Source: Octopus vulgaris (lineage: Eukaryota). Taken from it: a DNA stretch of 64,000 nt. This document shows, piece by piece, positions 7,224 to 30,399 of this stretch. A program made the translations under genes and the position numbers. The stretch lies in assembly GCA_951406725.2 (NCBI GenBank), contig OX597824.1:2232001-2296000 (forward strand), in the 5' to 3' direction. Each line of letters starts with the position of its first letter. Position 1 is the stretch's first letter. The notes beneath the pieces were generated by a model, which had not been told where the DNA came from, ran no database searches, and was given only the letters and a program-made list of their open reading frames with translations.

Positions 7224-7647
7224 TGTATGTTTATGCAGGCGGTTGTATATATGCGTGTAAGTGGTTGTGTGCTTTCCTAGTTATTGACATGTGGATGGTG
7301 AGAGGGGCTTTCATACAAAATCGTATCACTGAAACACGGCTGAAGGATGTCTTGGAAAGCCATCTTGGCAGCACCTGTGCGTCTCTGGTGACAGTATTTT
7401 GAAGTTGATGGCTCCATTATTTTATAACTTTATTTCCTCCATTTCAATTTTCCTCATCGGTGTAGTCACATTTACAACCATATATCAGCAACCATTGCAT
7501 GAAATAAACATACATGAAATAATCTTGACCCCAGCAGTAAAATAAACTCACACAGATACAGACACAGATGCACGCTCGCGCGCACACACTTATTCACACG
7601 CACATACACACACATATATACATACAAATATACATACATATATATAT

Positions 7648-15886: not shown

Positions 15887-17010
15887 TTCAGTAAAAGTTA
15901 GATTCAGTTACTTAAGGGAAAGGCAACAGAATGGAGTAAGAGAGCAGAGTATGGCAGAAGCCACAGCAACTCAAAATAAAACTGGTGGAACGTCCCCGTG
16001 AAAACCTCCGTATAATATAAACACAATGGACCTAACATAATGATTTCGGACAGAGAAGAATAAATCTGTACAGTTGCACAACTCAGTTGCCCAGTTGATG
16101 TTAACATAAAACAAAAGGTCAACGAAAAAGAAAATACCTACGATGAACTACTGAATGACTTGCAGTTACTCTATTCAGATTACAAGTTTAAGTTTATACC
16201 TGTAATTATTGAGGCCCTGGTATATGTAATACACTGCCTACATACCAATCTTGAGAAATTAGGCTTCTCGAACCCAGAAAGAAGGAAGCTGATTCGAAGA
16301 CTACAGATTCAATCCATCACTGGAACAGTAAAAATTTGTAAAACATTTCAGAAGTTCATCGTTTATGAGCATGTCTTGATGTGCAAGCATATGCTTGAGA
16401 AGGCATATATAAGTAAATATACAAATCTGCACTTATACATACGTACGTACTTATGTACGTACATACAGACATGCATACATACATATGGAATATGTAACAC
16501 ACTGCCTAAATACCAATCTTGAGAAATTAGGCTTCTCAAAACCAGAAACGAGAAAGATAATTCGAAGACTACAGATCCAAGTCATCGCTGGAACTGTAAA
16601 AATCTGTAAAACTTTCTAGAAGTTTATCATTTAAATATATATGAGCATGTCTAGATATGCAACTATATGCATGAGAATACATACATAAAACATACAAATC
16701 TGCGTATACATACATACATACATACATACATACATACATACATACATACATACATACATACATACATACAAAATACCCTGTTGTTGATGTTGCAATTAAA
16801 ATGAAGAAGTCTTGGATCTAAGTTAGAAACCGGTTCTTTTGCTATTGGCAAGCAAACTTGAAATAAATTGAATAATAACATACGTATATATACACACAAA
16901 CATACATACAAAAGCACCCATTGATGTTGCTGAAATTCCAATAAAGGACCTTGGATTTAGGTTAGAAACCGGCTCTTTCTGTATTGGCAAGAACTCTTGA
17001 AATAAATAAT
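15884..17010 (+). mobile_element. R4/Dong-clade LINE 3' end (restriction-like endonuclease) with duplicated tail
   Basis: WWNVPVKTSV*YKHNGPNIMISDREE*ICTVAQLSCPVDVNIKQKVNEKENTY..FIPVIIEAL (decayed RPD..E..P motif); 16222-16440 is repeated at about 16490-16710 and 16770-16865 at about 16910-17005. Confidence 0.8.
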
Positions 17011-19125: not shown

Positions 19126-19299
19126 GAAGTCAGAGAGTAAATGCTGTTACCAATTTTACGTGTCTGTTCGATGCTGAACAAATGTTACTGTATTTGAAAC
19201 CCAAGAAAACAACTTTTTCCCGCCGACTAACGACACACAACCTGTTTCTGTTTTATTGTGAGCAAGGGGGCGAACCGCTCCCACTCTAGCAAAGCAAAA

Positions 19300-19346
19300 C
19301 CAGTATACCGGCCGGCTTCTAGGTACCTTCCCGTCCTCAGTACTGG
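19300..19346 (-). ncRNA. type I hammerhead ribozyme (family C, left arm)
   Basis: CCAGUA-CUGAGGA-CGGGAAGGUACCUA-GAAGCCGGCCGGUA-UACUGG; 6-bp stem I; palindromic stem III; A15.1G change. Confidence 0.6.
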
Positions 19347-19494
19347 ATGTTTTGCATTGCTAACTATGTGAATGCCTTTTAGATATTTAAAACCTGTAAC
19401 TTTAGCTCGTTGTAAGATCAGCTACTTATGGCCACTCCTTTGTTTATATATTGCGAGCAAGGACCAATAGCTGCCATCTCTAGCAGGCAAACAT

Positions 19495-19537
19495 CCAGTG
19501 CTGAGGACGAGAAGAAGCCCTGAAACCGATCTACTGG
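19495..19537 (+). ncRNA. type I hammerhead ribozyme (family C, right arm)
   Basis: CCAGUG-CUGAGGA-CGAGAAGAAGCCCU-GAAACCGAUC-UACUGG; 6-bp stem I; stems II and III eroded. Confidence 0.6.
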
Positions 19538-19897
19538 GTTTACTTTGCTGGAGTGTGAGTGGATCGATCCCTTGCTCACAATAAAACAGACACAAGTTGT
19601 TTGTCGTTAGCCAGCGAGGAAAATGTTAAAACATAGTAACATTTGTTCTGCATGGAACAGTCACGTAAAAGTGATTGCAACCATTACTATTTCATATTAT
19701 TACTATGTGAATCTCTTTCAGAGATTTAAAACCAGCTTCTCTATATATGAACAGGGTGTGTGAAAAGTAAGTAGGCATTAAAATTGGTTATAAAACCAAT
19801 ATTCCTTTTTACAAATTCACTGAAGCAAATGATACATGCTCTTAATTATACAGGAAAATGAAAGTAATCTTCATATTTCAACGTAAGCACCGTAAGA

Positions 19898-20420: not shown

Positions 20421-21132
20421 GTTAATAGTTTCATAATTTTAAACGCCTTAAATAAAAAAAAAACCCTGAAATATCGTAAATTCTTTAATTCAAATCTATT
20501 AGTCTCTAGTTCTATAACCGAATTTGTTACATAATATACGCATTTATATATAAATGTTTATATATACACACACTCATCCCCATATTTACACATGTATATA
20601 TATATAAACATGCATACGTACATACACACACACACACACATATATAGGCATATTTCCAAACGTGTACTCACAGTCACACACACACACACACACACACAAA
20701 CACATATATGTGTGTGTGTGTGTGTGTGTGTACATATATTTAATTTTTTATAGAACTTCTTATCTTCTTTCTTGGAGCTCTAAAGGAATAGAAATGCTTT
20801 CAGTGATGCCCGACTCTATCCTTTTCCACTATTTTCCCCATCCTAAAAGAGGTTACCATCCTTGAATACTACAAACAGGACCGACTAAAAACAAACTAAA
20901 CATTAAAAATAAATACTGGGGTTGATTTTCCCGGCTAAAATCTCCAAGACGTTTCCCACCATGGATGCAGTCCTATGGCTGAAGCACAAAAAATAAAAGA
21001 TGAATTATTGAATGCTTTTCGGGGGTTTGATTGTATATACACAAGGGAAGAATCTGTTTTAGTTTACATCAGGATACGTAGATACGTATTTACTTAGGAA
21101 AACGCTATCACTAGAAATATTCAATATTATAG

Positions 21133-21166
<34 letters not shown>

Positions 21167-21392
21167 GAAATATTAAAATAACTAAGTCTCTCTAAAAGAG
21201 AACAGCGGCAGCGTTCCCGGAAAATAATAGTTATCGCCATACTAATATGGCATTCTTATAAAAATAAGAATAAAGCTGTCCGCTTATTAGCTCCATGAGG
21301 CCATCGCCTTAAGTTAGCTATTTGATACACAAACTGTATCCATATAACCTTCGAACAAGGGAGGTCAGTCGCTCCACACTACTTGACCGGCA

Positions 21393-21434
21393 GCTACAGA
21401 CGCGTTTCGGGGTATTGCCCCTTTTCAATGCAGC
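21393..21434 (-). ncRNA. type I hammerhead ribozyme, U3-A8 variant
   Basis: exact reverse complement of 21799-21840. Confidence 0.8.
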
Positions 21435-21798
21435 GTAGCCAGCCAGTAGGTGTCGCTTCCGACAATCTCTGTTCGATGGTTTTATTTACCTAGTTTCGGT
21501 GGAATACATCCACTTGTTTTCAATAATAGAAATATTAAAATAACTAAGTCTCTCTAACTTAAGGCGATGGCCTCATGGAGCTAATAAGCGGACAGCTTTT
21601 TTCTTATTTTTATAAGAATGCCATATTAGTATGGCGATAACTATTATTTTCCGGGAACGCTGCCGCTGTTCTCTTTTAGAGAGACTTAGTTATTTTAATA
21701 TTTCTATTATTGAAAACAAGTGGATGTATTCCACCGAAAGTAGGTAAATAAAACCATCGAACAGAGATTGTCGGAAGCGACACCTACTGGCTGGCTAC

Positions 21799-21840
21799 GC
21801 TGCATTGAAAAGGGGCAATACCCCGAAACGCGTCTGTAGC
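21799..21840 (+). ncRNA. type I hammerhead ribozyme, U3-A8 variant
   Basis: GCUGCA-UUGAAAA-GGGG(CAAUA)CCCC-GAAAC-GC-GUC-UGUAGC; predicted cleavage after C21834. Confidence 0.8.
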
Positions 21841-22003
21841 TGCCGGTCAAGTAGTGTGGAGCGACTGACCTCCCTTGTTCGAAGGTTATATGGATACAGT
21901 TTGTGTATCAAATAGCTAACTTAAGGCGATGGCCTCATGGAGCTAATAAGCGGACAGCTTTTTTCTTATTTTTATAAGAATGCCATATTAGTATGGCGAT
22001 AAC

Positions 22004-22089
<86 letters not shown>

Positions 22090-22368
22090 ATATATATATA
22101 ACATTGTGACTTGACTGGAGAATTCTGGAAACGTCTTTTTATAATTTTTTTATGGTATCACTTCTCATGATAATATTCCCAGAGTACGATTCATTCATGT
22201 GCACAAGTCGTTGATATTACTGCAATGAGAAAGATAATTTTACTCAAGCATTCATTTTAGAAAATCTACATAAACAAGTATGCTATCAAGAAGCTATTTC
22301 TCTCCAGCTTGTTTAACCAAATGAAGATTTAAAATAAACATTGATTTTAAATATATTCACGTAAGCAG

Positions 22369-23480: not shown

Positions 23481-23748
23481 ATACTAAGTAATTAAGGGTT
23501 TAGCAACGAATTGCCTCACCAACACACCGAATTTAGAAATAGCAGTCAAAGAGATATAGCTATTCCTTCTACTCTTTGACTGCTATTTCTAAATTCGGTG
23601 TGTTGGTGAGGCAATTCGTTGCTAAACCCTTAATTACTTAGTATTACTTAAATTTTCCTCGAATGGGGCTTTTACATGCCGAAATCTACTTGGTGTAATT
23701 GATGATTATTCCAAATTAATTAATTTCACCCTTTATTATTACTGATAA

Positions 23749-28306: not shown

Positions 28307-28380
<74 letters not shown>

Positions 28381-28385
<5 letters not shown>

Positions 28386-29690
28386 GGAATTTATACAAAA
28401 GCAAAAGACGAAGCAGGTGTATGAGTTTGAAGCTCGGAAATATGAAAATGTCTTTTATGTTTTGAGCTTAAGCTCTTCAGCAGAAAGGAATAAGAGAAAA
28501 TAAACAGAGAGAATGAGAGAAAAAAACGTAGATTTAGGGGGTCAGGCATAACGAATGATTAGTAAAAAATAAGTTGAAAGAAAGGGAGATAATAAAGTGC
28601 TGGTGATCCCAAATGAAGGTGCGCTTGCGTGTGTGTATATGTGAGGGTGGTGTGTGTGAATGCATAAGCGTGTTTTTGAATAGGGGCTCGTGACTCTGAC
28701 TCGTGTGAGTGCGTGTGTAACGAGTAGCTGCGCATACACTGGTACGTGTACTGACGTTATTGAACATTGTGTGTGGGTGGTGGGAGGTGGTCAGTGTATG
28801 GAGTGGTGTGGAGTGGTGTGGTTTGGTGTGGTATGGAGGTGTGGGGTAGGTACAATCGAAGAGAGGAAGTAGGTGTCAGATGAAGAGAGGAAGGGAGTTG
28901 AGCCCATGTGACATAAATGAGCGAAGAGAGAAGATTAATTCTGCTCACGGCGAAGGCTGATGTCCAGATGGCCCATGCGCAAAGACTGTCCGAACAGACA
29001 GATATTGTAGTGAATGACTGTAAAGCAGAAAGGGTGGAAGACCAGGGCGTGATGTCGAGATTTTCGAGGGAAGAATTAGAAATAGTGTAGGAGAATTCGA
29101 GAGCAGGATGGAAGGATTGTACAAAAGAGAGGAAAGAATCTAATTGCTTGCAGGAAAGAGAGGTCGCACTGATACAGTCGTTGATATAACGACCGTATAA
29201 TTCGGGAGTGGGATCAGTAAATCGTGAGAATATTTGGGCCTGAGCGTAGCCAACGAATTGGTTTGTACAATTAGGGTCCATTCTCGTTCCCCTGGCCAAT
29301 CCCGAATGTGTTGGTAAAAATAATCCGCGAACGGAGAGTTGAGGGAGAGAACAAGTTCAACCAGACGAAGAAGGGTGGAGGTGACAGGTTGGAGGTTAGC
29401 TCGAAGGCCCAGAATATATTTCAGCGCAAGAAGTCCTTTGTTGTGTGGGATCACCGTATATAAATTCCTGATATCAAAAGTGAAGAGAAGTTAGAGAAGC
29501 CAGGAGGGAAGGAGTCAGAGCCAAAGAGACGGAGAGCATGGTCAGTGTCGTGGATGTGGGATGGGAGGGGCAGTTTCAGGCGGAGACGGTGCGTGGAGTG
29601 CGGACAATGAGGTCGGAGGCGGTGGAAGGGAGATGGGAGGAGGAAATGAGTTCACGCATTGAGGAGGACACAGTCTGTTGGTATTTAAGC
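28381..29690 (-). mobile_element. Penelope-like retroelement (Neptune-type), internally deleted, with 3' terminal repeat
   Basis: LISSSHLPSTASDLIVRTPRT, LFTFDIRNLYTVIPH, ARGTRMDPNCTNQFVGY, YGRYINDCI, FHPALEFSYTISNSSLENLDI (RT motifs), then RREQ-LIFSLRSFMSHGLN (GIY-YIG C-terminus) and an HHR-bearing repeat at 28381-28530. Confidence 0.9.
28452..28487 (-). ncRNA. degenerate minimal hammerhead (family A) in PLE terminal repeat
   Basis: CUUU-CUGCUGA-A-GAGC(UUAA)GCUC-AAAACAUA-AAAG. Confidence 0.5.
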
Positions 29691-30399
29691 GTGATATATA
29701 TATGTATGTATATATGTATGTATGTGTATGTATGTATGCATGCATGTATGTATGTATGTATGTATGTATGTATGTACGTATGTATGTATGTATGTATGTA
29801 TGTATGTATATATGTATGTATGTATGTGTATATGCATGTATGTATGCATGTATGTATGTATGTACGTATGTGTATATGTATGTATGTACATATTCATATT
29901 CATATATACATACGCATAATACATATATAGATTTTGGTAACTGAATATGGTTGAAACGATATATCACCATCAAAACGAGTAAAAAAAAAGAAAAAGGTGT
30001 AAACAAAACTACTTAAAAAAAGTATACGGATAAAGAAGAACCTGATGAACGCATGAAAGGATGCATGTAAACGAGACGACGGGAGGGTTACTATGCGATG
30101 CTTTGACCTGGTAGAAATAGTAGCTAAATCTCACTCAAATACACACTGTATCACTGTATATAGACGGGAGAATCAGTGTTGAAATGCCTTTGATCTCAAT
30201 TGTGTTCGATCCGGGGTGAGGTGAGGTGGAGACACCATCAAAAATATAAAATAAAATAGAATACACACAAATAATAACAGACAGTTGCCTCTATGTTTCA
30301 AATAAATGCTTTATCAACATATGTTGTCACCAAATTACACATATCAATGAATGTGTGTGTGCGTGTACGCGCGGAGGGGGTTGTGTGTGTATGTGTGTG

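Follow-up and report, generated by a model that had tools for sequence, protein, structure and literature searches.

Animal non-LTR retrozymes, in the accessible text of two sources (PMC7229834; 10.64898/2026.07.22.740005), are non-coding tandem elements with a short unit of about 150–450 nt (350–390 nt in mussel) and a GC content below 50%. Each unit carries one type I hammerhead ribozyme with a palindromic helix III, copies are dispersed as anything from monomers to multimers, and Penelope-like elements are present in the same genome, with a proposed cycle leading from circular RNA through reverse transcription to tandem cDNA. Endonuclease-bearing (EN+) Penelope-like elements of the Neptune clade are characterized, in the parts of the reports available, by 5′ truncation, partial tandems, an inverted 5′ copy, a tail at one end, a preference for (TA)n and target duplications of 8–10 bp, and non-autonomous multicopy derivatives of Penelope-like elements are known in Chlamys (MRC1) (PMC8557442, PMC3846280). 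Poseidon of Anolis, in the accessible account of its activity in vitro (PMC11167929), uses two internal reverse transcription start sites that define the tail, prefers an AT-rich target, cuts and extends both DNA strands, is predicted or modelled as a dimer, carries a ribozyme upstream of the start sites and needs no ribozyme cleavage for insertion. The 362-nt element described here can be likened to all three systems.

The locus under study lies in the window, the 64-kb stretch of DNA that was analysed, and consists of two arms of a non-coding 362-nt unit, a length that fits the retrozyme range, which meet at their 5′ ends and both point outward into (TA)n tracts (Table 1). The sequence-only reading of this locus as a retrozyme-like unit in two head-to-head copies was borne out in its particulars. 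The exact 362-nt period is present in the left arm (21161–21195 equals 21523–21557; 35 nt, 100%) and in the right arm (21554–21647 equals 21916–22009; 94 nt, 100%), the arms cover 1.10 and 1.26 units and differ at two positions (21493/21740 and 21271/21600), each holds one type I hammerhead (core starts at 21805 on the plus strand and 21428 on the minus strand), and there is no open reading frame of 60 aa or more, the longest with a start codon being 47 aa and the longest stop-free stretch 66 codons. Its description of the arms as circularly permuted was right for the 5′ ends, which are variable, but the arms are not freely permuted, as their 3′ ends are two fixed sites used throughout the family. 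As there is one ribozyme per arm, this locus cannot itself release a unit-length RNA. The unit folds with a z-score of −5.31, none of 100 shuffles being equally stable. A motif scan of the window found no type I hammerhead beyond those of the two arms; the ribozyme was undetected with Rfam, which gave no match at the gathering threshold and only hairpin-type chance matches at E<10, and there was no tRNA gene at 21000–22200. Elsewhere in the window are two other inverted repeats (19214–19623, with 98-nt arms at 83%, and 23481–23644, with 73-nt arms at 100% and an 18-nt spacer), a 152-codon frame (16064–16522, plus strand) that by eye is like the C-terminal endonuclease region of a non-LTR element and has no Pfam match, and a decayed, internally deleted Neptune A-like element with a reverse transcriptase (RT) fragment and terminal repeat that ends at a (TA)n tract (28330–29700, minus strand).

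Table 1. Features of the head-to-head insertion and its flanks (window coordinates)
Feature	Position	Strand	Basis
Left (TA)n target flank	21124..21163	.	TRF period 2 and sequence
Left arm, 397 nt, unit 123 to 157 of next round, 3′ end at site B	21161..21557	-	Sequence comparison
63-nt 'tail' (unit 95–157), this end only	21161..21223	-	Family mapping
Left-arm type I hammerhead, predicted cleavage after 21399	21393..21434	-	
Inversion junction, 4-nt microhomology CTAA common to both arms	21554..21557	.	
One full 362-nt unit (reference, 41.7% GC)	21554..21915	+	
Right arm, 456 nt, unit 1 to 94 of next round, 3′ end at site A	21554..22009	+	
Internal copy of putative priming site A (CTATTAT, unit 88–94)	21641..21647	+	3′-end pile-up at unit 94–97
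Internal copy of putative priming site B (CTATTAT, unit 151–157)	21704..21710	+	3′-end pile-up at unit 154–157
Long hairpin bearing the hammerhead (unit 199–334)	21752..21887	+	Folds and pair counts on 40 copies
Right-arm type I hammerhead, C17 = 21834	21799..21840	+	
Right (TA)n target flank	22007..22100	.	TRF period 2

The hammerhead is made up of stem I (GCUGCA/UGUAGC), the core UUGAAAA (U3-A8), stem II (GGGG/CCCC), GAAA, a palindromic helix III (CGCG) and UC. At L210:2090–2140 and 7360–7410 (minus strand) and at L162 there is also a hammerhead-like motif of the U3-A8 type, again with a CGCG palindrome. The fragment just upstream of this motif resembles, on a tentative reading, the restriction-type endonuclease of a non-LTR element. 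The U3-A8 core, unlike that of the animal non-LTR retrozymes compared in the accessible text, is a variant known from Penelope-like elements of Schistosoma, and the same source, as far as available, states that a short palindromic helix III requires a second ribozyme for cleavage (PMC4209133). Over 40 distinct copies, the ribozyme hairpin has 93.3% standard pairs and U3-A8 is kept in all 40 while other positions vary; CGCG is replaced by CATG in the helix III palindrome of some copies, and G-C by A-U in stem II. On these 40 copies the predicted ribozyme is kept under sequence change. Two-sided change was seen in 7/49 pairs, a number that did not exceed that in shuffles (128/500), and these changes are mostly accounted for by a single divergence of two families. 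With RNAalifold, the long hairpin and stem I were obtained but stems II and III were missed. Only one of nine retrozyme dimers tested is described as cleaving in the accessible part of the 2026 preprint (10.64898/2026.07.22.740005).

The host genome (G000) is 2.8 Gb and rich in microsatellites. An exact 30-nt core has 892 matches genome-wide and none in the control; the 62 matches on contig C1 represent 39 insertions, which by extrapolation scales to about 560 insertions in all. There are 46 full units sharing one near-perfect score, and a relaxed pattern gave 2,547 matches against 58 in the control, most of the first 100 being from the lineage of the unit. A second family (family 2) is 81% identical to the 362-nt unit and has 191 exact cores, and intermediate forms occur such that families are 81–99% alike. 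The suggestion of a recent and possibly active family is supported by the 892 exact cores and 46 near-perfect units of a young, active-looking, non-coding element. In the literature covered, where subscription journals were mostly outside the search and supplements excluded, we found no paper on the 362-nt family, on a Penelope signature in a retrozyme or on a counted rule of one end of each kind per insertion. Its arms are repeats of the unit throughout, with no LTRs flanking a different internal body, and two or more ribozymes in tandem occur at 41/84 mapped loci (24/59 in the sample chosen by core alone), the window locus not being among them. By the features examined the element fits the animal non-LTR retrozymes, with cleavage and circular RNA as predicted properties. 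We note that in public sequencing runs the unit is present at 81–90% of words under seven coded organism labels, and that run X9 (label B) matches the youngest haplotype; a related species, diet or labelling could explain this.

A total of 84 insertions were mapped, of which 25 came from the strongest matches at the DNA level and 59 were selected by the core alone (all 39 on C1 and the first 20 on C2). Head-to-head arms were found at 62/84 insertions and at 40/59 of those chosen by core, while none was tail-to-tail. The 5′ ends of the arms are scattered round the unit, but the 3′ ends pile up at unit 94–97 (site A) and 154–157 (site B), 63 nt apart and each directly after CTATTAT. Among the 54 head-to-head loci at which both ends could be assigned, 52 combine one A arm with one B arm (p 8e-14 compared with free choice). 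The remaining two are B+B and none is A+A, with one end elsewhere or unassignable at eight further head-to-head loci; the two B+B loci and the 22/84 loci that are not head-to-head count against a two-ended reading. The same rule extends to family 2, where 14 of 29 loci are head-to-head and A+B was found in 10/10 scorable cases with four unassignable, and to further and intermediate haplotypes (7/7 scorable, three unassignable). Both flanks are (TA)-like at 46/62 head-to-head loci. Outside pure (TA)n a single target duplication of about 6–12 nt frames both arms at a few loci (L007, L094, L249, L062 and L078), and one duplication around both arms indicates that the pair arose in one event. The arms agree at 465/474 diagnostic sites, compared with 71.8% when arms are shuffled. 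Their lengths are uncorrelated (rho −0.17, n 48), which argues for two copying reactions that are not in lockstep and end independently, and copying in lockstep was rejected on this basis. The offsets between the two 5′ ends are spread over the whole unit, and where the arms meet without inserted bases they overlap by at least 2 nt, typically 2–6 nt, in 40/45 junctions as against 16% by chance; inserted bases are present at 13/58 junctions. Scrambled unit-like or unrelated filler lies at 5′ junctions of L026:2210–2300, L052:1873–2008, L017 and L024, which suggests template jumps. As a separate observation, a piece resembling the site B end lies in the flank beyond the arm in the window (21110–21140), where it may be due to chance, and at L019, L037, L054 and L076, as if priming had restarted; such pieces accompany 4/70 B ends and 0/66 A ends.

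In LINE-1 twin priming both target ends prime and the cDNAs join by microhomology to produce an inversion, the two parts covering different stretches of one linear RNA. The present family is unlike this in that the starts are 63 nt apart at fixed sites and the same sequence is copied in both arms, often repeatedly. It also differs from Poseidon, for which the accessible text reports that neither strand favoured one start site over the other and that primer and RNA start were not homologous (PMC11167929), as here each site is used once per insertion and both end in bases that match (TA)n. The head-to-head form seen in the window recurs at 62/84 loci and is a signature already described for Penelope-like insertions (PMC8557442, PMC3846280, in the parts available). 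Compared with the Neptune clade as described there, however, the 362-nt family has no open reading frame, its tail is 63 nt rather than 30–40, and both of its arms can be longer than one unit. Inverted arms, fixed 3′ ends and a tail are undescribed in the accessible retrozyme literature, the word 'inverted' occurring 0 times in the available text of PMC7229834.

A predicted cleavage site is read through by 79/108 arms, and two such sites by 33. This read-through requires that the template was a circle or an uncut multimer, as had been supposed from the window alone. Stops occur at the predicted cleavage site in 12/125 passages against 2.9% expected (p 3e-4), which suggests that some templates may have been cut there. 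However, stops are about equally enriched at the hairpin foot and other structured places (unit 323–336, 113–126, 169–196 and 239–252), and so the excess at the cleavage site may equally represent pausing. At five loci, counted outside the divergent L093, variants unique to the locus among those sampled are present in all passes of both arms (L052, L062, L094, L095 and L099), a pattern that fits one template molecule; against this, 112/132 locus-private variants are in a single pass only. A-to-I editing of the template was considered and rejected, since A>G changes were not clearly in excess (single-pass A>G 14 and T>C 17; all-pass 5 versus 2). The unit-to-unit joint is present in all four public runs examined, none of the 23 runs being recorded as RNA. 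A single closed 392-nt contig from run X9 was not used as evidence of a circle or of expression since any tandem copy yields the same.

The genome also holds young Neptune-type families with RT, CxxC linker and GIY-YIG domains. Neptune B, which is autonomous, terminates at either of two 3′ ends separated by 39 nt, of which the second follows CTATTAT, and it carries a ribozyme-like core resembling that of family 2. Seven of 43 Neptune B loci, 24 of which were selected for the first end, are head-to-head, and the two ends are paired in all seven; head-to-head is thus the majority form in the 362-nt family (40/59) but not in Neptune B of the same genome. Its unit length is 4,712 nt with many near-identical copies, and at L205:1081–4784 a 479-codon open frame lies upstream of and overlaps a 781-codon RT-endonuclease frame. 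Neptune A is linked to the unit at L046/L314 (G000:C1:46034700–46036800), a chimeric head-to-head insertion with a retrozyme arm ending at A on one side and, as the other arm, a 1.2-kb young Neptune A 3′ end that switches to unit sequence across a brief, imperfect match. The same structure could also result from a subsequent insertion accompanied by a deletion. L237 and L091 were not counted as chimeras, being ambiguous cases in which the unit adjoins older Neptune-like DNA. Neptune A has also given rise to mini-units of about 456–570 nt (L351–L354, G000:C8:18599700–18602500; also L340, L345, L346 and L339) which consist of the terminal repeat and 5′ end with a ribozyme-like motif, in tandem. 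In the mini-units of about 456–537 nt the junction left by the deletion recurs in tandem. At L353, with 4.5 units of 492 nt and a short inverted arm ending at a second site, it occurs five times and in a head-to-head arrangement. These mini-units have the appearance of retrozymes that arose only recently. Neptune A and Neptune B are therefore candidate partners, each by circumstantial links. Alignment scores of the unit against the terminal regions of Neptune A or B were within those of shuffles, with no significant match, and no unit linked to an open reading frame was found among 44 RT-query loci, 30 GIY-YIG loci and 40 wider stretches, an incomplete sampling, or with three relaxed ribozyme patterns. 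A homologous pseudo-LTR is reported, in the accessible text, for 24/57 Xenopus families; none was found for the 362-nt unit in the sampled Penelope-like loci, and an RT plus GIY-YIG frame between pseudo-LTRs was absent from the unit and the loci screened.

We propose that a Neptune-type RT/endonuclease probably made these insertions by two-ended target-primed reverse transcription at a single (TA)n cut, with an RNA template that was probably circular or otherwise an uncut multimer. Loci with tandem ribozymes would be transcribed, paired hammerheads would cut after unit base 281 and the monomer would be ligated into a circle. The target duplications suggest that the endonuclease would make a staggered cut of about 8–12 nt in AT-rich DNA. 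One DNA end would then start at RNA site A and the other at site B, the pattern seen in the arms, each start following CUAUUAU, the last bases of which match a (TA)n end. Each cDNA would run on independently, as the arms do, often for more than one unit, to a variable stop, in many cases the base of the ribozyme hairpin or the predicted cleavage site. The cDNA ends would pair through 2–6 nt and be filled in, giving the observed head-to-head insert with a 63-nt tail on one side. The geometry is the outcome expected if both 3′ ends of a staggered cut were extended on sense RNA, with the enzyme, cut and circle as postulated components. This reading is consistent with the activity of the Anolis element in vitro, in which the two strands are likewise both cut and extended and two internal starts set the tail (PMC11167929).

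An alternative keeps the two-ended priming but does without a circle: the RNA copied would be a linear transcript, partly uncut, produced by read-through of a small number of long master arrays. Arrays of 4–7 units do occur (L005, L034 and L315); copying ends at the cleavage site in some arms, which is where the 5′ end of a linear template would halt it; in L005, L084 and L034 a few rare variants reappear at intervals of two or three units; and ribozyme mutants still insert in vitro (PMC11167929, accessible text). However, many haplotypes have homogeneous multi-unit arrays, each of which would need its own master, and copies could become shorter from one generation to the next but never longer. 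No daughter was seen to carry the inversion junction or flank of a parent, only 1/48 junctions recurring and that in different haplotypes, and a linear master is difficult to reconcile with the unique junction repeated five times within the L353 insert. We regard this explanation as possible but rather unlikely. Another possibility is that the inverted arm results from fold-back self-priming of one cDNA or from an antisense template. Self-priming on an antisense template was the explanation given for head-to-head repeats with junction palindromes of rotifer Penelope elements (PMC3846280, in the part available), and it would give both arms one haplotype, as observed. In such a case the second arm should mirror the first from the turning point, and fold-back is disfavoured by the unrelated phases of the 5′ ends; moreover both arms exceed one unit at 17/58 two-arm loci and the outer ends are almost never the same site (52/54 A+B), so we consider it very improbable.

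The units could instead be fragments (pseudo-LTRs) of an undiscovered autonomous Penelope-like element rather than an independent non-coding family. They share their insertion signature and the U3-A8 ribozyme variant with Penelope-like elements (PMC4209133, accessible text), and only 84 of about 560 insertions were read. Against this, the unit repeats head-to-tail without an open reading frame, the 5′ flanks of 37 single-orientation loci have no common element body, Neptune protein matches lie within reach at 7/113 loci with none a recurring fusion of frame and unit, and the non-coding unit has evolved as such across families 81–99% alike. Fixed termini on a Penelope-like reading frame had been named at the outset as pointing to an ordinary pseudo-LTR; the 3′ ends are indeed fixed, at two sites, but apart from chance or chimeric neighbours no such frame is attached to the unit in the 113 loci screened. 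An origin as pseudo-LTRs is therefore improbable. It is also true that inverted repeats beside microsatellites are hard to assemble, and no independent contig was shown to span the exact junction in the window, as would be a concern if the inversion were an assembly artefact or a DNA-level satellite rearrangement. Yet 62 of the 84 loci, with different junctions, follow one rule, target duplications are present, and head-to-head joints are found in independent public data (12 distinct inversion joints in run X16 and one in X10), leaving such an origin with hardly any likelihood.

How Penelope-like elements make tandem and inverted insertions is called undefined (PMC8557442), and the mobilization of retrozymes by such elements has been argued from co-occurrence and homology only (PMC7229834; 2026 preprint), both as stated in the accessible text. 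Here every element of the Penelope insertion signature is found, at hundreds of young sites, in a non-coding retrozyme. The pairing of one A with one B end, the junction microhomology and the presence of only one target duplication point to a single, specific reaction. With two mapped putative start sites on a 362-nt RNA and two intact candidate enzymes in one genome, the family offers a small test system. As a tentative model, perhaps a dimeric Neptune RT/endonuclease holds one 362-nt circular RNA, primes both target ends at A and B and rolls round by strand displacement until the cDNAs meet, and the Neptune A mini-units may be retrozymes born in this way. If true, this dimer-on-circle reaction would account for the way in which all Penelope-like elements come to have inverted copies, tails and tandems.
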